DNA from: Bdellovibrionales bacterium
GTDB taxonomy: Bacteria > Bdellovibrionota > Bdellovibrionia > Bdellovibrionales > JAMPXM01
NCBI GenBank assembly: GCA_043739185.1
Contig: JAYUEN010000286.1
Location: 1 to 64,000, forward strand
DNA: 64,000 nucleotides
Reading direction: 5' to 3'
Shown one piece after another: positions 774 through 8,942 of the stretch (its first letter is position 1; every line of letters begins with the position of its first letter). The notes beneath the pieces were generated by a model. It was not told where the DNA came from and did not search any database. It was given only the letters and a program-made list of their open reading frames with translations. Both the position numbers and the translations under genes were made by a program.

Positions 774-961
774 GAGTTATTATCTCATTGTGGGAATTTC
801 TAGACTTTTGACAAGATATTTCAAGCCCAGATCTGCTATACGCGTCCCCACAGCCAAAAAACTTTATAACTAGACCCGAGGGCCCTCCCCTCGCAATGCC
901 TTTGGCACAAAAAAATCGACTCAAACGTCTATTAAATGAGGATTTCGGAGGCGTCTTATAT

Positions 962-2074
962 ATGCCAAAGCTCACTCTTTCATATTCACTCGTTTTTTCT
1001 GTAGCTCTATGTTCATTATCTATCAATTGTTCGAGTCCATCTTCTGAAAGCAATTCGCCAATTACTCCTCCGAATACAAATGAGTTGAAAGCAGATCCCT
1101 GGAATGCACCCGTTTCTGATTTGGTTTTAGGCGCACAACTATCAGATGGTTGGAGTGACTTGAGATTGATTGCTGCTCCGGTAAATGTCTCTGGCGGCTG
1201 GACAGATTCAGCAGCGATATCAATTGATGGATTAAGTCTTTACTTTGCCTACGCCAGATTTAGTTTCAGCGACCTAATTGATAAGGGGCAATACAATATG
1301 AATGGACCGTTTCGACCAGGAATGACTGGCGACTATATGAAAAACTTTAAAGCCGATCTCACTCCAAATGGTTGGGTGGTCAATTACCTTTCAACCAATG
1401 GCGATATCCATCAAAATGAAGGCTCTCTTTCTACCAATGCGGAGCAAGATCTACGTGTCTTCGCTAAATTTAATTCATCAGGAGATATGGCAAGCATTTA
1501 CTATTCGGCAAAAGATTCAACTGGCAACTGGTCAATACCCCTGATGTTGGGTGGCCCTATTAATAATCCGAACTGCAGCAATGACAATCCCTTCATTCTT
1601 GGAAGTTTAAAAACAGGTGTGGATATTTATTTTGATTCGGATCGAACTGATCTCGGTTGTTCTTCAAAAGGAACCGCAAAACACATCTATCATTCTCTTT
1701 ATAATCCGACTCTCAATAGCTATTCGCCGCTAGAACTAGTGGCTGGTATCAACGGCACCACTCTGGGTGATAGTGACTATCAGCCATTTATCACCCAAGA
1801 CAAAAAGCATTTTTACTGGACCGGCGTACGTAGTACGGCTTATGCCATTTTCACTGCAGATCTAGTTGGCGGAAGCTATGCAAATGTCAGGGCGGTGGTT
1901 CAGCCCAATTATACGGCGCCCTTTACTGGCAAATTGGTATTTGTTGGTGAAGCCAATATCGCCGAAACTCCCCAGGGCTCACTTATGTATATGATTTGTG
2001 GACTTGCCACCAATGAAGTTGGCATCACTCACGGTGCCGATTTGAAAATTTGTCGAGCAAAAAAGAGTAAATGA
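962..2074 (+). CDS. Lipoprotein with TolB/PD40-like beta-propeller repeats
   Basis: Probable start ATG 962 (GGAGG upstream; ORF track starts 896). Hydrophobic signal ending SINC; repeats such as GPINNPNCSNDNPFI, GINGTTLGDSDYQPFITQDKKHFYW, AISIDGLSLYF. Confidence 0.6.
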   Translation: MPKLTLSYSLVFSVALCSLSINCSSPSSESNSPITPPNTNELKADPWNAPVSDLVLGAQLSDGWSDLRLIAAPVNVSGGWTDSAAISIDGLSLYFAYARFSFSDLIDKGQYNMNGPFRPGMTGDYMKNFKADLTPNGWVVNYLSTNGDIHQNEGSLSTNAEQDLRVFAKFNSSGDMASIYYSAKDSTGNWSIPLMLGGPINNPNCSNDNPFILGSLKTGVDIYFDSDRTDLGCSSKGTAKHIYHSLYNPTLNSYSPLELVAGINGTTLGDSDYQPFITQDKKHFYWTGVRSTAYAIFTADLVGGSYANVRAVVQPNYTAPFTGKLVFVGEANIAETPQGSLMYMICGLATNEVGITHGADLKICRAKKSK

Positions 2075-2084
2075 TTTAAAGCTA

Positions 2085-3068
2085 CTAAGGTATGCGCTCT
2101 CTCAAATCATCAAAAGACATTTTTCTAATTTGGGCTTCGAGTTCAGCTCTTTGATGTGGATCATTGGGGTCATTTAAAAACGGCAGCGTGGCTTCAAAAG
2201 CCAAGTTTTGCAAATGAGTTCGGCTATAAAAAGTTTTGAGCCAAAGAGAATCGACCGCATCTTTGACTTCGATTAAATCTGATCCAAATGGAGTGTATTG
2301 ATCTACCGAATGGAGTACGGCCGGAGAAACTGCAACCATATAGAGACCCGCAACGAGTGAAAGTCTCCAAAATATCTTTTGAAATCCATTGTAAATCCTT
2401 AGGCCATTACCACCCGGAATTCTTTGATTGATATACTGAATCGCCTCAGCTTGAGTCATAACAGGCAGCCTTTGTACAAGCTCAGCCTTTTGAGCCTTTG
2501 ACATAAAACGATTGAGTTTAGGCAAATAAATTGGAATGAAGCTTCGGCTCATCAGGCCGACAGTTATCCACGCTGCCACTGCCGCAGTCGCCTTAAAAAT
2601 ATTTCGATTTTTTTGATAATGAATTCGCAGCGCCGAGGACTTCAATTCAAGTTCGGATCGATTTCTTATCTGCAGTTTAAGCTGCTCGCTCAGTACTTCT
2701 TGTAATATAATTAAAGCTTGCTCTGGAGAATTAGCCTTTTGCTGTTTAACTCGTTCAACTGCGTGTGTGTAGGTCTGCAGATTCGCTTTTAAATAAGAGC
2801 CAACCAAGTCATCGATCTGACGTCCATGCAATTTTTCAAGGTCAAGTTCTTCGAGATGATTTAAAAAGTCTGCGAAAGCACCTGGATTGTTTTCAATCGC
2901 TTCGTTTTGAAATAGAAACTCCGAGACATCTTCCGAAAGCTCTCGGAGTAAATCGAGCTTTTGCTTCACGTTAGAATTCTGAACCGCAAACAAATCCTGA
3001 CAAGTTTGTGCTTGTACAAGACTTGTTTGAAGCAGAACCATAAAAATGAAAGCCAAAGCAAATTTCAT
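2085..3068 (-). CDS. Hypothetical exported protein with two internal hydrophobic helices
   Basis: 327 aa; signal peptide ending VQA, then QTCQDLF; hydrophobic stretches AAVAAWITVGLM and LSLVAGLYMVAVSPAV; 5 bp downstream of 3074..4315. Confidence 0.75.
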   Translation of the reverse strand: MKFALAFIFMVLLQTSLVQAQTCQDLFAVQNSNVKQKLDLLRELSEDVSEFLFQNEAIENNPGAFADFLNHLEELDLEKLHGRQIDDLVGSYLKANLQTYTHAVERVKQQKANSPEQALIILQEVLSEQLKLQIRNRSELELKSSALRIHYQKNRNIFKATAAVAAWITVGLMSRSFIPIYLPKLNRFMSKAQKAELVQRLPVMTQAEAIQYINQRIPGGNGLRIYNGFQKIFWRLSLVAGLYMVAVSPAVLHSVDQYTPFGSDLIEVKDAVDSLWLKTFYSRTHLQNLAFEATLPFLNDPNDPHQRAELEAQIRKMSFDDLRERIP

Positions 3069-3073
3069 TATAA

Positions 3074-4315
3074 TTAAATCTTCCCAACACTTTTAATCAG
3101 TTTTTCTTGTTCGAGCTGGGTAATGGTATCCACGATGATCGCTTTGGTTGCTTTTGTCGAAAGTCGACTGCCATCAAAGTTCAATACAAGATATAGTCCA
3201 AAGCTCGCATAACCCGAACCGGTCTTGAGCTCTATGTTTTGCGCTCTTAAATCCTCGCTCATTCTCTCATTGGCACGTTGTTTTAAGGTGATTGCTCGCC
3301 AAGCAAGCGTCGTGCCCAAAGCAATTGAGATAGCCGAAACAGCGGCCTTGGCTTGCATCATTTGCTTGAAGTTTCGCGTCTGCGGAAACAAAATCTTAAA
3401 TAGGCGATCATACAGAGCACCTAGCTGTTTAAAACCAGGAACCGCCGAAGCGTCGGTAGCGTAAATGAGAGCTCCATTATTAAAAAGGCCAATTCCTAAA
3501 GCCAAAGTAGCCTTAGCCTCAAAATCAGACTGAGATAATTTTGCTAAAACCTTGGTGTTCATCGAATCTTCAAGCGCAGACAAGTCCTTTGCTCGATAGA
3601 AATTAGCTCCAATGACACTACATTTTTCAAATGCGACGTCGACGTTGTATTGAGTCCCTAATTTATTTTCAGAAATGGCCGACGTAGGGCACTCACGAAA
3701 GCCAAATAGCTCAGTATTGTCTTTTGAGACACTGATTTTAATCAAAGTACTCGGGTCATCTGAAAATCGCATGACCGTAATTTTTTTCTCCAGAGCATAA
3801 TCGAGATCAGCTGCCACTTCTTTTGGACTAAACACTTGCTTTGAACACTCAAATTCATCGCCTTCATTTTTGGTTTTGCGAAAAATTTCATGTGCGACGT
3901 TTTTATTAAAACCCACTGGATTTTTGCCAAAGGCCGCATCCACTCGATCACAACGTACTTTGATCGCCTTAAGATCTTTTTGTAAAAACATCGCGATTTC
4001 GGGATTATTCAAATAAGTAAGTGGTTCATTTGGAGTCAGATACTGTAGATCTTTTTCGACCGGTACGAGTTTGCGAAATTCCACACCAGTCATCGCACAG
4101 CCTTTTTTCATTCCTGGCCCATTGGCATCCATCCAGAGAGCAACTTGCTCAGCACCCGAACGAATGGTCGCTCCACAGCTGGTACCGCCACCACTGCCCA
4201 TCCCGCCACCGCCTGCATTGCCAGAGTCTGAACCTCCGGCAGCCTGTAGATGAACCGATACAAAAAGACCAGTTAGGGCAGTCAAAACTCGTGTTATATT
4301 AATTAGATGCTTCAT
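3074..4315 (-). CDS. Hypothetical secreted protein with Gly-rich mature N-terminus
   Basis: 413 aa; signal peptide, AGGSDSGNAGGGGMGSGGG, several Cys, two C-terminal hydrophobic helices; GGAGA RBS at 4321-4325. Confidence 0.8.
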   Translation of the reverse strand: MKHLINITRVLTALTGLFVSVHLQAAGGSDSGNAGGGGMGSGGGTSCGATIRSGAEQVALWMDANGPGMKKGCAMTGVEFRKLVPVEKDLQYLTPNEPLTYLNNPEIAMFLQKDLKAIKVRCDRVDAAFGKNPVGFNKNVAHEIFRKTKNEGDEFECSKQVFSPKEVAADLDYALEKKITVMRFSDDPSTLIKISVSKDNTELFGFRECPTSAISENKLGTQYNVDVAFEKCSVIGANFYRAKDLSALEDSMNTKVLAKLSQSDFEAKATLALGIGLFNNGALIYATDASAVPGFKQLGALYDRLFKILFPQTRNFKQMMQAKAAVSAISIALGTTLAWRAITLKQRANERMSEDLRAQNIELKTGSGYASFGLYLVLNFDGSRLSTKATKAIIVDTITQLEQEKLIKSVGKI

Positions 4316-4361
4316 ATTCGTCTCCGTTTATTAAATAGGGTTTAAGTGCAATTGAAAGACC

Positions 4362-4440
4362 AATATACGCGACGCGTCGTTCGGGCGATAGGTTTGCTTA
4401 GTAAAAAATCAGCAACATTTGTTACCAAATAGTCATGAGT
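4362..4440 (-). promoter_or_regulatory. Conserved promoter/operator element, copy A
   Basis: 47/76 ungapped identity (4365-4440 vs 5665-5740) concentrated in blocks; inverted repeat TTAGTAAAAAAT-N7-ATTTGTTACCAA (4398-4428, 10/12); minus-strand -10 TATATT at 4362-4367. Confidence 0.7.
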
Positions 4441-4459
4441 ATCCTTAAAACGCCGATAT
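4433..4459 (+). promoter_or_regulatory. Possible sigma28 promoter of the DUF4423 gene
   Basis: TCAT-N15-GCCGATAT ending 9 nt before ATG 4469; would give an almost leaderless mRNA. Confidence 0.4.
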
Positions 4460-4468
4460 TACATAGGA

Positions 4469-5278
4469 ATGACAATATTTGAATTTAAAGATGAACGCAG
4501 TTTTCTGCGCGAATACATTCAGCATCTACCCAAAAATGGGCGCGGCGAAATCAGTCGAATTGCCACTCATTTGGGAGTGCACTCAAGTTTCATTAGCCAG
4601 ATTTTAGCAGGCACCAAAGACTTCAATATTGAGCAAGCCCAAGATTTGGCGGGCTATCTGGGATTGAATTCACTCGAAACAGATTATTTTATTCTCCTCG
4701 TTCAAATTTCAAGGGCCGGAACCAATAATCTCAAAACTTACTTTCGCAACAAACTCAATATACTTAAAAGCCAGTCGCTCGAGATCGCCAAAAGAATTCC
4801 TCAGGATCGAAAGCTAACAGAATATGAATGTTCAATATTTTATTCGAGTTGGCTTTATTTGGCGGTTTGGCTTCAGACATCTATTGACGATGGCCAAAGC
4901 CTCGATAGTATCGCAAGCCGCTTTGATGTACCCAGAGCGCGCATCTCAGAAATTTTAGAATTTTTAATTTCTACTCAATTGGTTCGCTTAGAAAAAGATC
5001 TCTACGTCATGGGACCACAATTGATTCACTTGGATCGGAGCTCCCCGTTTCTCGTCAAACATCATATCAATTGGCGGGTAAAGGCGATTCAAAGAAGTGA
5101 GGATATTGCGAGTGAAGAAATGATGTTCACGTCTCCGCTTTCGATTAGTCGAAAAAATTTTACTGAGCTTCGCGAACAGATTGTGGCACTCATCAAAAAC
5201 GCTTCTGCACTTGTTACCAAGTCTCCCGCAGAAGACTTGGCCTGTTTAAATCTTGATTTATTCTGGATTAAAAAATAA
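4469..5278 (+). CDS. TIGR02147-family protein (N-terminal XRE-like HTH, C-terminal DUF4423); putative transcription regulator
   Basis: 269 aa; HTH ISRIATHLGVHSSFISQILAG; family-like motifs YFILLVQ, FYSSWLY, HHINWR, C-terminal LNLDLF. Confidence 0.85.
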   Translation: MTIFEFKDERSFLREYIQHLPKNGRGEISRIATHLGVHSSFISQILAGTKDFNIEQAQDLAGYLGLNSLETDYFILLVQISRAGTNNLKTYFRNKLNILKSQSLEIAKRIPQDRKLTEYECSIFYSSWLYLAVWLQTSIDDGQSLDSIASRFDVPRARISEILEFLISTQLVRLEKDLYVMGPQLIHLDRSSPFLVKHHINWRVKAIQRSEDIASEEMMFTSPLSISRKNFTELREQIVALIKNASALVTKSPAEDLACLNLDLFWIKK

Positions 5279-5286
5279 TTCGGCTT

Positions 5287-5601
5287 TTACAGCATTGGTC
5301 GGCTGGCTACACATACGGACTGAGCTGGACGATACACATTTGTCATAAAACAAGCGGTTGTTTGTGGATTACAAAGTTCAGCACTGAATCCTACGCAAAG
5401 TTGTTCAGCGTAAGCTGAATCTGGCTTTGCATGGCAACCAGGGCGAATCTCTGGCGAATACGCTTCCTGACAAAAGCCAACACTCACACAAACATGCGGA
5501 TTGGCGCTCAAACTTCTACAAATTTGGTTTAAAGTATAACCAGGATCTGCAGACGCGATTGCAGATACTAAAAATGCGATTGAGAAAAATAGACTTTTCA
5601 T
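5287..5601 (-). CDS. Small Cys-rich secreted protein
   Basis: 104 aa; signal peptide ending ASA; 8 Cys in the mature part; AAGGAG RBS. Confidence 0.8.
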   Translation of the reverse strand: MKSLFFSIAFLVSAIASADPGYTLNQICRSLSANPHVCVSVGFCQEAYSPEIRPGCHAKPDSAYAEQLCVGFSAELCNPQTTACFMTNVYRPAQSVCVASRPML

Positions 5602-5661
5602 AAAAACTCCTTTGAAAGTTTTGCCTTCAATAAATTTCGAAGGGTTTAATTTGTTTTCTCG

Positions 5662-5740
5662 ATAATACGCGATGCGTTAAATATTGGATAGGTTTTGTTA
5701 GTAATAATTTATGCTAAATCATGACCAATTGCTTATGATT
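5662..5740 (-). promoter_or_regulatory. Conserved promoter/operator element, copy B
   Basis: Same blocks as copy A (ATACGCGAyGCGT, GATAGGTTT, TTAGTAA, ACCAA, ATGA); inverted repeat TTAGTAATAATT-N7-AATCATGACCAA (5698-5728, 9/12); minus-strand -10 TATTAT at 5662-5667. Confidence 0.7.
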
Positions 5741-5805
5741 TTTTATTAAACTTATTAATTTCAATATATTATGGCTTAATCAAAGCCCTTAGTTTTCGCC
5801 TATTT

Positions 5806-7719
5806 TCAGTAGTAATAGAGCAGTTGTCCATCAAAAAGCGCCTTTGAATTTTCACTCTTAACGGTCGCGCGCAGAGCCCAATTTTTTTGCGGAGTCCATT
5901 GCGCACCAATAGTGTTTTGGCGAAATTCAGAAGCCTTCGACAAATAGTCATAGCGCAAATAGCTTTCTGCGAGGAGCGAAAGCGCATGGTGATTCCAGCG
6001 AAGCATAAGTGCTGGACCGGCACCGCCCCGAAATGCCCAAGTTTGAAAATTGGGATTTTGTTGAACCCCCATTCTCAACCAAAGTGACATGTCGAAATCT
6101 TTAAACCAGGTTTTGGTAGCAGCAATTCCTCCACTCATTTCACTGACATTACAAAGTGAGCTGCAGTCATTTTCAAAGCTCCGCTCGTTTGCAATCTTAA
6201 GGCGCCAGGAAGGATGCACTGAAAACTCATCGATAGGTGCTAATGAAAGCACCTCAAAGATTACGGCCTTTTCAAGACTCAAAAGCTTGGTAGCTGAATT
6301 GAGACCAAGAGCAAAATCGCCCATGGTAATTTGTGCACCCGAAGGATAGCCAATTTTTGGATCGAGCAAATCGTGGAGGGCAAACTTATAACTGAATAAT
6401 AATCCGTCACCGTCATCTGGCCAATGTTTGTAGCCAAAACCTAGGCGCCGTGAACCTTCGGCATCATGAGGGGCTTCGGACCAAGGGATGCTGATGGGCA
6501 ATACAGGCGAAATTCCGCCCACCTCCGAACGCGCGAACAGAACTTCTTTCTTCAAAGAGTATTTGCCAACCTTTTTTAAAATATCATTTGGATAGCGAAA
6601 ATCGAGGTAATCCATAACTGCGTCCAGTGTTTCTCTTTTAGCTTCGCCTTCCAAACCTTGTGTGAGTTCACTTAAGGATTCGCTTTGTGCGAAATTTTTA
6701 ATACGCTCTTGGGTACTCGCCGATATTCGCAAATATCTATTTTGAAAGCTTGCGCGAACAGAGGGCCGATAATGAATATGGCTGACGAGACCAGGCACTT
6801 CGTAGATCGTCTGAACAGTATCTGCCGGCATGACTTGAGTCTTTAGTTGATCAACCAAGTGGAGCTCTGGGCGCGCGAGCTCTAGTACTGCCAAAATGCG
6901 ATAGGAACAATTTTGCGAGAAGTAATGATAGTCAAAGTTGACATCTGAGAGCTCCCAAATGAATGCAATGATGAGCTCAACTTCTTCAGGCGTAAAGCTC
7001 AAATCATATTCCCAAAGATCACGGGATTCGAAATCATTGTATTCGCGAACTTTAAAATAATATGGATTAACATCAAAAGTTCCCGGCATAAATCCTGAAA
7101 CGCCGAGAATCGAGTAGACCAAAGGATTGTCGGACACCTGCAAGGCAGCATATCCAATCCCATAGTCAGCAAGTTCAAAGCGCTCGCCTGTTTGCGCTGA
7201 TGGCGCTTTATTCACACGTAAAAAAGTATGTCCAAAGCCCGAAGCCGGATTATTCAGATAATAAGACGAAAAAACATAGGTAAGCGACTGGGCCTGTAAA
7301 ATTTCTTTGAATCTGCCAAAACGCTCACATGAAATGGGGCCAAGCTTTTGGCCAAGTTTTTTTTCTAACCAAAGTTTTCGGGCCGGGAATACACAAGCCA
7401 CAGGGTCATTAAATTTTTGATCGCGCGATTTGATCAAGCGCTTGTTTTCAAAAAGACTTTCAATCGTGGCCGCAAGTTCACGCTCAGGTTGAGTGGCTCC
7501 CTCAGGACTTAAATAAAATTTTTCGGATCCCGCCTGACTTTTGAATCCGCCCCAAATATTTTTTTGATATTGTAAGAGCCTTAGCCATTGAATGTCTTGA
7601 GACCAATGTTCAGCGCGAGATTTTTCAAGAACAGAATTCAAATCTAGAGTAGAAGTGAGAGCATTTGAAGAAAGCCCCACGAGAGTGAGGCTCAATAAAA
7701 TAAAAATTAGCCGTGGCAA
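5806..7719 (-). CDS. DUF4105 (Lnb N-terminal-like) domain protein with probable C-terminal beta-barrel
   Basis: Signal peptide; W-x-x-LL-x-Y, CVFPARK, NPASGFGHTFLR, YNDFESRDLWEY, YHYFSQNCS; beta-strand-like C-terminus ending QLLYYY. Confidence 0.85.
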   Translation of the reverse strand: MPRLIFILLSLTLVGLSSNALTSTLDLNSVLEKSRAEHWSQDIQWLRLLQYQKNIWGGFKSQAGSEKFYLSPEGATQPERELAATIESLFENKRLIKSRDQKFNDPVACVFPARKLWLEKKLGQKLGPISCERFGRFKEILQAQSLTYVFSSYYLNNPASGFGHTFLRVNKAPSAQTGERFELADYGIGYAALQVSDNPLVYSILGVSGFMPGTFDVNPYYFKVREYNDFESRDLWEYDLSFTPEEVELIIAFIWELSDVNFDYHYFSQNCSYRILAVLELARPELHLVDQLKTQVMPADTVQTIYEVPGLVSHIHYRPSVRASFQNRYLRISASTQERIKNFAQSESLSELTQGLEGEAKRETLDAVMDYLDFRYPNDILKKVGKYSLKKEVLFARSEVGGISPVLPISIPWSEAPHDAEGSRRLGFGYKHWPDDGDGLLFSYKFALHDLLDPKIGYPSGAQITMGDFALGLNSATKLLSLEKAVIFEVLSLAPIDEFSVHPSWRLKIANERSFENDCSSLCNVSEMSGGIAATKTWFKDFDMSLWLRMGVQQNPNFQTWAFRGGAGPALMLRWNHHALSLLAESYLRYDYLSKASEFRQNTIGAQWTPQKNWALRATVKSENSKALFDGQLLYYY

Positions 7720-8195
7720 GATTGAGACATTGCAACGATTTTATCAGAAACTTCAGTTCCCAAAGTAGCGTTGCCATAAATATTTTTATAATTTTTTTGG
7801 AGTGTATTGCTAAATTGAGCATCACATCCCAGCATATTATTCAAAGTACTCAAAGTTTCACCCTGACCGCGAACGATATCATTTTCAAGTGCTACTGAGT
7901 TGGATTGAATATAGGCATTTATTTCGGCCTTTGCAAAAACTCCGGCTCCACAATTAGATGTACCAGAAGTGATCCCGAAAGTTTGCACGCCAGTGCCGTT
8001 TAAAGTCGCAGCAAAAATCTGCATTGCACCTGGCTGAGCACCAAACGCCAATGAACCAAGACCACAACCAGCAACGCCATAAGTACCTGACGCTGCAGCC
8101 TTAGGCTCCATTGCTTTGGGTGCTGTTTTGGTATCTTTTGCATTTGCAAGCGACCAACTACCAATTGCTAAAATCATTACGATAAATAATCTCAC
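7707..8195 (-). CDS. DUF3015 family secreted protein (copy 1)
   Basis: GTG start with GGGGAG RBS; YGVAGCGLGS, QTFGITSGTSNC, DIVRGQGETL motifs. Confidence 0.85.
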   Translation of the reverse strand: MRLFIVMILAIGSWSLANAKDTKTAPKAMEPKAAASGTYGVAGCGLGSLAFGAQPGAMQIFAATLNGTGVQTFGITSGTSNCGAGVFAKAEINAYIQSNSVALENDIVRGQGETLSTLNNMLGCDAQFSNTLQKNYKNIYGNATLGTEVSDKIVAMSQSCHG

Positions 8196-8297
8196 GATGT
8201 CTCCCCTAAAATGAATCCGACACCATGTCGGATCAATAGTTAGTGAATAGTATGTAAAACAAATTTCAAGTGCGCAAGTCTTTCTCTAAGCTCGCGC

Positions 8298-8765
8298 TTA
8301 AGAAGCATGGCAAGATCGAGACATTTCAACGATTTTATCAGATAGTTCAGTTCCCGTTCTGCCTGCGCCGAATATGCTTCGGTAGTTCTTTTGAAGTAGT
8401 TCGTTGAAGTGCGCATCGCAGTTCAACATTTTATCAAGTGTACTCAAGGTTTCGCCCTGACCTCGAACGATATCATTTTCAAGGGCTACCGAATTGGACT
8501 GAATATAGGTATTGATTTCTTCTTTAGCAAAAATTCCGCCTCCGCAATTAGAGGTACCAGAGGTGATACCAAAAGTTTGAACTCCGGTGTGATTGAGAGT
8601 CGCAGCCAAAACCTGAATAGCTCCCGGTTCATTGCCAAATGCAAGTGAGCCCAGACCGCATCCTGAAACTCCATAAGTTCCTGAGCCCTTCAATGCGTCC
8701 GAGCCACTAGCGTAAGCACTGACCAATCCCGATACTGTCACCAATAAAACAAATAGTAATTTCAT
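8298..8765 (-). CDS. DUF3015 family secreted protein (copy 2, tandem paralog)
   Basis: Probable ATG 8765 (GGGGAG RBS); YGVSGCGLGS, QTFGITSGTSNC; long stretch identical to copy 1 (YIQSNSVALENDIVRGQGETLSTL). Confidence 0.85.
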   Translation of the reverse strand: MKLLFVLLVTVSGLVSAYASGSDALKGSGTYGVSGCGLGSLAFGNEPGAIQVLAATLNHTGVQTFGITSGTSNCGGGIFAKEEINTYIQSNSVALENDIVRGQGETLSTLDKMLNCDAHFNELLQKNYRSIFGAGRTGTELSDKIVEMSRSCHAS

Positions 8766-8942
8766 AAACACTCCCCTGGCTGATAATCTAACCATAGGTC
8801 AGATTCATATTTTTATAAAAACTTCGTCTATATTATGTAATAAGAAACAAAGGGCGAGCAAGTCTTCATTTTGAAACTTCGAGTAATTCTGATAGATCTG
8901 ACTGCGAATTGGTGGCGTTTTTATTTTTCAGAAAGCTTTATC

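Follow-up and report, generated by a model that had tools for sequence, protein, structure and literature searches.

Predicted operator and promoter elements linked to a subfamily of TIGR02147/DUF4423 regulators and their secreted-protein neighbours in Bdellovibrionales

Introduction

Why should two unrelated genes for predicted secreted proteins, lying on either side of a regulator gene, be preceded by the same stretch of DNA? The question is raised by a 64,000-nucleotide (nt) stretch of a Bdellovibrionales genome (assembly GCA_043739185.1, contig JAYUEN010000286.1; hereafter the window), in which the gene for a helix-turn-helix (HTH) regulator of the TIGR02147/DUF4423 family is flanked by two copies of one upstream element. 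Our analysis indicates that the repeat is probably an operator joined to a sigma70-type promoter, through which the adjacent TIGR02147/DUF4423 protein would activate its predicted secreted-protein neighbours. From comparison of sequences, the element is very likely the operator of the window regulator; granted that, activation is the favoured sign of regulation.

TIGR02147/DUF4423 is a heavily expanded regulator family. In the literature searched, we found neither a function nor a binding site for it, and DUF4423 appeared only as a table entry. With an operator, a reading helix and a transcription start predicted, the family becomes directly testable, and a base-level operator lets the targets of such regulators be assigned from sequence. 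The locus also bears on how predatory bacteria switch on many uncharacterised secreted proteins, and paralogs with distinct operators could serve as orthogonal engineering switches. Below, G000 is the genome holding the window and G002 a sister genome, L and C codes denote regulator loci and G000 contigs, respectively, and "secreted-looking" refers to a hydrophobicity heuristic made for this analysis.

Two copies of the element flank the regulator gene

The three genes at the centre of the locus are listed here.

4469..5278, plus strand: regulator, 269 amino acids, TIGR02147/DUF4423 (hidden Markov model scores over both cut-offs, fold model)
3074..4315, minus strand: divergent target, 413 amino acids, signal-peptide-like start followed by a Gly-rich stretch (open reading frame, ORF; no Pfam family)
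5287..5601, minus strand: convergent target, 104 amino acids, signal-peptide-like, 8 Cys (ORF, Cys count)

The regulator scored 68.2 bits against TIGR02147 (Fsuc_second; curated cut-off 50) and 58.2 bits against Pfam PF14394 DUF4423 (cut-off 30). As an earlier note on this DNA had reported, the two copies of the element (4365-4440 and 5665-5740) align without gaps at an offset of 1300 with 47/76 identities, contain the blocks named there, and carry 12-7-12 dyads matching at 10/12 and 9/12 positions. They start 50 and 64 nt ahead of the two start codons, and each has a good -10 (TATATT, 4362-4367; TATTAT, 5662-5667) separated by 17 base pairs (bp) from a poor -35 (TATCGC, 4385-4390; TATCCA, 5685-5690). 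In line with the description of the targets as non-homologous, blastp matched neither of them to the other or to any other ORF of the genome. The 9-mer AGGGTTTAA, described as shared nearer the genes, is present at 4337 and 5641, but it is missing from a third copy found in G002 (see below) and is changed at 5645 in the contigs of two of four DNA runs. These contigs, all from one study, differ at 4217, at 5645 and, within an unconserved spacer, at 5684, which is too few variants to weigh.

The resemblance between the copies exceeds that of chance pairs. In a search of 1,625 G000 upstream regions, either copy retrieved the other as its top hit apart from itself (30.9 bits; runners-up at 21.4 and 25.5), and only 2/6,000 random pairs scored as high. 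No third copy was found when both copies were searched against the genome by blastn. We also compared upstream regions pairwise within 7 kb of 35 paralog records; repeated elements above 30 bits occurred at three loci, compared with 2.6% of 192 control loci. A general two-copy layout was not found among these records, and of the three loci only the window showed the promoter architecture.

The element recurs beside related regulators

G000 contains 33 matches to TIGR02147, of which 27 are over the cut-off. We defined a subfamily as records reaching at least 60 bits to the window regulator by phmmer, which holds for 133 of the 148 regulator records with enough flanking sequence; it is present in 34/44, 34/61 and 32/41 genomes in three samples of the order. 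The nearest upstream ORF is divergent for 121/133 subfamily regulators, and likewise for 66/71 loci fetched afterwards and kept as an unseen set. Consistent with the earlier description of the targets as secreted proteins, 99/121 divergent targets are secreted-looking, against 1,408/4,391 ORFs overall.

Expectation maximisation (EM) from random starts on 118 divergent regions returned two blocks, one AT-rich with ATCTA at its end and one of GC-N3-GC form, and these are the blocks common to both window copies. When a two-block model was trained on 97 regions from genomes other than G000, copy 1 ranked first and copy 2 third of 2,323 G000 upstream regions, and 10 of its top 12 regions in G000 lay within 3 kb of a paralog (118/2,323 overall). 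A three-block model, whose training included G000, gave at least 20 bits at 45/71 unseen loci, compared with 0/710 shuffled sequences and 0/71 opposite strands. The architecture is conserved across 204 regulator records with 11 family codes. Thus the similar elements that the earlier note had said should be sought beside paralogs were found, both de novo and by held-out models, and its description of the element as an operator plus promoter tied to TIGR02147 regulators accords with this family-wide layout. The tie holds for one subfamily: among 19 distant TIGR02147 records the three-block model reached 13.2 bits at most, so that 0/19 reached 20 bits.

Anatomy of the predicted operator and target promoter

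Positions below are given on the target strand. The parts of the two copies are as follows.

4429..4436, minus strand: copy 1 outer half-site (I-left, -81..-74), overlapping the -35 region of the regulator's own promoter
4421..4428, minus strand: copy 1 middle half-site (I-right, -73..-66)
4398..4405, minus strand: copy 1 inner half-site (II-left, -50..-43)
4385..4397, minus strand: copy 1 AT-rich stretch and poor -35 hexamer (4385-4390)
4362..4377, minus strand: copy 1 GC-N3-GC box and -10 hexamer (4362-4367), with a start predicted near 4355
5698..5736, minus strand: copy 2 operator (I-left 5729-5736, I-right 5721-5728, 15-bp spacer, II-left 5698-5705)
5662..5697, minus strand: copy 2 promoter (-35 at 5685-5690, 17-bp spacer with GC box, -10 at 5662-5667), with a start predicted near 5655

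The common order is thus a half-site (-81..-74), an inverted half-site (-73..-66), 15 bp, a further half-site (-50..-43), 7 bp of AT-rich sequence, a poor -35, exactly 17 bp containing a GC-rich box, and a sigma70-type -10. When the loci were anchored without use of site I, palindromicity was highest exactly at -31 (3.74/8, z 5.9), while the ten neighbouring offsets gave z values of -2.1 to 1.9. We then computed covariation between half-sites over 95 of 116 loci. The strongest pair was I-right/II-left (438 against 366±10), which forms the dyad centred at -58, followed by I-left/I-right (355 against 294±12) and I-left/II-left (354 against 321±10); the two halves of the inner 16-mer (site II) did not co-vary (221 against 214±9), and site I is palindromic. 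I-right of copy 1 forms a 16-bp palindrome with I-left and an 8-15-8 dyad with II-left. The dyad of the earlier note is therefore real in its centre at -58, but its conserved arms are 8 bp rather than 12, and a third half-site belongs to the element. The position at which both arms had seemed to change together (A/T versus T/A) belongs to the 15-bp spacer, which is poorly conserved, and its bases do not pair in the third copy, so the compensatory change did not hold up.

Promoter features were counted in the 87 of 116 sites with at least 20 bits. In 42/87 sites, the -35 register is followed by a TAnnnT at 17 bp, against 0-6 at each other spacing from 13 to 22, and both window copies have a -10 of this type at this distance. 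The sigma70 -35 consensus is TTGACA; only 1/87 sites matches it in at least five positions, so that a poor -35 with a good -10 holds throughout the family, and in both window copies a half-site (-50..-43) sits just upstream of it. A simple sigma70 scan lists neither copy, as expected for a poor -35. Visual inspection of both copies and a handful of family rows led us to drop two other readings of the GC box, as part of an extracytoplasmic function (ECF) sigma promoter (AAAC-N17-CGT) or of a sigma54 promoter (GG-N10-GC), since their spacing does not fit.

Among 140 primary sites, copy 2 tied for first place and the G002 copy came first in resemblance to copy 1. Since copy 2 resembles copy 1 at least as closely as any of these sites does, we tie copy 2 to the window regulator.

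The regulator as a predicted dimer with a candidate recognition helix

The structure model of the regulator (predicted local distance difference test, pLDDT, 89.9; predicted template-modelling score 0.60) has an XRE (HigA-like) HTH domain at about residues 1-88, an ArsR-like winged helix at about 115-190 and a C-terminal dimerisation region at 196-269. Residues 7-88 match HigA/XRE folds (Z 8.1; root-mean-square deviation, rmsd, 2.9; 76 aligned). The best whole-domain match is Kfla_6221 (PDB 4g6q; Z 9.1, rmsd 5.5, 143 aligned, residues 118-267), which likewise joins a winged helix to an uncharacterised C-terminal domain; it is only 10% identical and lacks the XRE domain, and several ArsR/HxlR matches lie within 1 Z of it. 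Foldseek gave no match to the model at E 0.001, and a sequence search of the PDB returned weak HTH hits only.

Homodimer prediction gave 0.87, compared with 0.26 for the best control, with a pLDDT of 84 and agreement between runs in at least 90% of contacts; the mark applied is one reached by 20/30 solved homodimers and 1/23 single chains. The predicted interface comprises residues 128-154 and 196-269 and includes none of the XRE domain. These models support a homodimer formed through the C-terminus.

Which part of the protein may read the half-sites was approached by comparing half-site similarity between loci with protein similarity. After overall relatedness was removed, the association peaked at residues 35-46. 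When half-site similarity was binned by distance in a tree built with the XRE domain left out (94 rows, one truncated row dropped), the peak was at residues 38-43 (z 5.1, family-wise p 0.003), compared with a maximal z of 1.1 for the recognition helix of the winged helix. Two rules visible in the first set of loci were then checked on 44 unseen sites: Q38 goes with a base other than C at position 5 (4/4 against 5/40), and V40 with G at position 4 (6/8 against 1/36). A third, H38 with TGAC (4/14 against 0/30), was noticed with the unseen rows in view and is not blind. Because kin share both helix and half-site traits and the independent-pairs test is too small, we take it as suggestive that residues 38-43 of the XRE recognition helix read the half-sites.

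These observations bear on a different explanation, namely that a different factor shared by the loci (a sigma factor or global regulator) recognises these elements as one promoter class, the DUF4423 gene being only a passenger or co-regulated. The II-right/-35 block and the GC-N3-GC box are indeed alike across the family and correlate little with protein identity (Mantel r 0.03 and 0.02), and the box is present in 30/87 family spacers against 1/66 generic TTGACA-type promoters. However, the half-sites vary between loci in concert and track the recognition helix of the neighbouring regulator, and all 11 genome-wide hits of at least 27 bits lie within 500 bp of a paralog (the model having been trained with G000 included), while only 3.4% of the genome lies within 3 kb of one. 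We regard a shared factor as improbable.

Proposed mechanism and sign of regulation

In the scheme that we favour, in which the regulator activates its targets, both copies follow the family layout, as seen directly: three 8-bp half-sites beginning at -81, -73 and -50, a poor -35, 17 bp and TAnnnT. Judging from co-variation, residues 38-43 would read the half-sites, and each paralog would thus have its own operator variant. The predicted C-terminal dimerisation would leave two XRE heads outside the interface, suiting the 8-15-8 dyad at -58, and a second dimer or an alternative register might use the 16-bp palindrome 31 bp upstream. Bound upstream of the core promoter and not over it, the protein would recruit RNA polymerase to the weak -35. 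Activation is favoured because all half-sites lie upstream of the poor -35 at rigid spacings, that is, from position. The outer half-site might at the same time repress the regulator's own promoter (see below), and copy 2, located 1.3 kb away and directed back towards the regulator, would give that protein a second target promoter. Speculatively, the conserved C-terminal region would sense a signal, the module being off until induced.

The same operator could instead work with the opposite sign: the protein would cover an AT-rich, UP-like region needed by the weak -35 promoter, and a signal would lift the repression. The HigA-like XRE N-terminus and the ArsR-like winged helix match repressors, and an AT-rich region, from -50 to -36, reaches directly up to the -35. 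On the other hand, no conserved half-site lies over the -35/-10 core or downstream of it, and the rigid 31-bp and 17-bp spacings, together with a poor -35 in 86/87 sites, fit contact between protein and polymerase. Published expression rows for DUF4423 proteins of Bdellovibrio bacteriovorus, which may or may not belong to this subfamily, carry the element and have divergent neighbours, are mixed in sign: with Bd1537 present, its neighbours show hardly any expression (PMC12546842 and PMC3627812, supplement rows), which would suit repression, whereas Bd1901 and Bd1900 are both growth-phase genes (supplement rows of PMC3627812), which would not. Overall, we consider repression the less probable sign.

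Several observations weigh against activation through this operator. XRE domains often repress. Among the unseen loci, 26/71 scored below 20 bits in the 190-nt window, although two of them have a site further out. The association between protein and DNA is confounded by descent, and a test on independent pairs gave p = 1, with 4-8 pairs in the rows listed. G002 keeps the divergent gene (52% identical), although decay has left its divergent copy of the element at 9 bits. Furthermore, the seeds of the two- and three-block models were hand-written after the window copies were known, so that the held-out ranks carry the weight; only the random-start EM and the site-I-blind covariation analysis are seed-free for the features tested. 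Finally, levels of the B. bacteriovorus DUF4423 protein Bd3758 increase as those of the neighbouring Bd3757 drop, a pattern later reversed (PMC12546842 supplement), and such opposite levels would be in line with repression.

A FliA-like promoter in front of the regulator

One further feature concerns the promoter of the regulator itself.

4433..4459, plus strand: FliA (sigma28)-like promoter, TCATG, 15 nt, CCGATA, 9 nt before ATG (sequence pattern)

The CCGATA lies at 4453-4458 and is kept in G002, and no CCGATA was found beside copy 2. A match to the TTAAG-like -35 is partial, with 2/5 at 16 nt and 3/5 at 15 nt. The genome encodes fliA (TIGR02479, 271 bits, over the cut-off). CCGATA occurs at this position in 18/49 of the closest regulators, 11/154 others and 78/4,197 ORFs overall. 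In B. bacteriovorus, TTAAG-N16-CCGATA was mapped in 92/140 attack-phase promoters, and the mapped Bd0931 promoter has the same TCATG-15-CCGATA form as that of the window regulator, several such promoters being leaderless (Karunker et al., PMC3627812, Table S2). The same study proposes that FliA-driven regulators control non-FliA genes and leaves a third of attack-phase promoters unexplained (PMC3627812); background on sigma70 and FliA promoters is given in PMC12622784.

Judged from its distance to the ATG, the FliA-like promoter would give a nearly leaderless regulator mRNA. Since the outer half-site overlaps its -35 region, self-repression of the regulator is suggested. As to leaderless transcripts more widely, TAnnnT ends 6 nt before the ATG in 23/133 subfamily regulators, and Shine-Dalgarno-like words lie upstream of 19/133 of them, compared with 1,349/4,227 ORFs; many subfamily regulators would by this pattern be leaderless.

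A third copy in the sister genome and the origin of the repeat

G002 carries an ortholog 75% identical to the regulator and, 1.9 kb downstream of its stop, a third full copy of the element. A pattern built from the three copies matches only G000 (two) and G002 (one) among 384 genomes. The third copy precedes a different first gene, and two extra genes lie between it and the small secreted gene; these (L032, 5373-6034 and 4373-5356) are secreted-looking, have no Pfam family and stand between the element and a small Cys-rich gene. The target operon thus gains and loses genes behind a fixed control element.

The third copy also bears on whether the window copies stem from a local duplication that is now decaying neutrally. 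In the three pairwise comparisons, 11-12/13 positions of the -10/GC box, 15-17/20 of the -35 plus inner site and 10-11/16 of site I are identical, against 6-8/15 of the 15-bp spacer and 0-2/8 of the promoter spacer. The shared 9-mer and the shared -35 letters do suggest that copy 2 arose from copy 1, and a common origin by duplication is likely from the sequences. However, the conserved blocks are 75-92% identical across the three copies and the spacer 0-25%, while the four-fold sites of the regulator gene agree between G000 and G002 at 21/70 (30%), synonymous sites being saturated, and the same architecture spans the regulator records described above. The copies therefore show a pattern of purifying selection, and neutral decay, named beforehand among the outcomes that would overturn the operator reading, is refuted by conserved blocks beside scrambled spacers; we give it next to no probability.

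Layouts and targets

The two-copy cassette type that had been proposed does not describe the family. One divergent copy is the rule, and among the loci compared both copies were seen intact only in this window. Non-divergent copies are seen in the window, G002, L212 and L219, with weaker candidates at L177 and L226. L212 and L219 have no divergent gene, and their element lies 1.7-1.9 kb downstream of the regulator, ahead of a secreted-looking gene in convergent orientation. The divergent copy of G002 keeps the middle half-site and the CCGATA box and has lost the target-side promoter. Since both copies were seen intact only here, the window locus may be an intermediate between the divergent and the downstream layouts.

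As an addition to the activation scheme, the transcript from copy 2 might run antisense through the regulator into the 413-amino-acid gene, giving feedback on the regulator and making copy 1 dispensable. Such a layout would fit a noncontiguous operon, in which one transcript spans an oppositely oriented gene (PMC7154746). The gap between the end of the small gene and the regulator stop is 8 bp in the window and 4 bp in G002, no terminator-like site was found between the two, and G002 retains copy 2 and the divergent gene but only a decayed copy 1. However, tail-to-tail gaps of at most 25 bp follow 26/133 family members, many with housekeeping neighbours, so that the gap is not special, and a hairpin resembling a terminator appears at 4510-4495 of the minus strand (10 such sites found against 6.3 in shuffles). 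We regard this addition as doubtful.

Of the divergent targets, 50/121 have a Gly-rich stretch (GG..GG, GNG) behind the signal-peptide-like start, compared with 88/4,391 ORFs; window 4315-4180 is an example. The stretch is possibly a shared processing or sorting tag. At L219 and L221, a small ORF that looks by eye like a second HTH protein lies convergent to the regulator (+795 to +1285 from the regulator start), and on G000 contig C255 (1959-2279) a small HTH-looking ORF, also judged by eye, is the first target gene; such second HTH ORFs would make regulator cascades possible.

Relation to known systems

The logic of control, a local HTH regulator with a divergent target, is familiar; it resembles C-protein and LysR modules and belongs to neither. 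What this analysis adds is a sigma70 architecture common to the subfamily and checked on held-out data, a third half-site, and a link between half-sites and recognition helix. LysR-type modules consist of a divergent pair with a shared control region, a palindrome near -70 and a weaker site by the -35, and combine self-repression with activation of the target. The divergent regulator-target arrangement of most loci described above is LysR-like, whereas half-sites and spacing differ, and up to a dozen or more paralogs per genome have their own operator variants; the LysR domain is not among the eight Pfam families listed for the regulator at E 0.1.

C.AhdI-type controller (C) proteins of restriction-modification systems, like the regulator, have an XRE-type HTH and multiple operator sites preceding a weak promoter, and they activate from an upstream site, there proposed to act through sigma70 region 4, which is like the activation proposed here (PMC2275141). 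C-boxes comprise two complete palindromes, of which the proximal one represses; here site I is palindromic, and the halves of site II did not co-vary. In contrast to these small single-domain proteins, the regulator has 269 residues, three domains and C-terminal dimerisation; its sites are 31 bp apart and all upstream of the -35; and its target is a divergent or convergent secreted-protein gene instead of its own operon with an endonuclease. Pfam and NCBIfam scans of the flanking genes at 896-8795 found no restriction-modification family. The FliA attack-phase regulon shares the CCGATA -10 near the ATG of the regulator, while the target promoters here are of sigma70 type instead (PMC3627812); among subfamily regulators, the FliA-type -10 is a trait of a subclade and not family-wide. 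PMC4704652 deals with other families.

As a tentative and rather unlikely generalisation, predators might run much of their orphan secretome through portable switches of one regulator and one operon. In each, residues 38-43 would read a private operator, the sigma70 promoter would be silent without the regulator, and in this subclade a FliA-made regulator would relay the attack-phase sigma factor to secreted effectors, the second operator here serving antisense feedback.

Neighbouring genes and other loci

A search for related loci yielded one each from genome contigs and from metagenome contigs. The 413-amino-acid and the 104-amino-acid targets each have two relatives apart from themselves, and Atlas, Pfam and NCBIfam gave nothing usable for either of them or for the G002 neighbours. 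The following gene stands behind the divergent target.

2085..3068, minus strand: secreted-looking gene, 327 amino acids, 5 bp behind the 413-amino-acid gene (ORF list)

These two genes are likely to form one operon, and G002 has a 333-amino-acid gene at the place corresponding to the 327-amino-acid gene. The ORF at 1-654, which runs off the start of the window, is presumably flagellin-like. On the other side of the locus, window positions 5806-8795 hold a Lnb_N/DUF7840/DUF7843 gene behind a tandem pair of DUF3015 genes (Pfam). Elsewhere in G000, contig C398 (78053-79878) carries two tail-to-tail subfamily regulators, each with a divergent element (41 and 39 bits) and a secreted-looking target.

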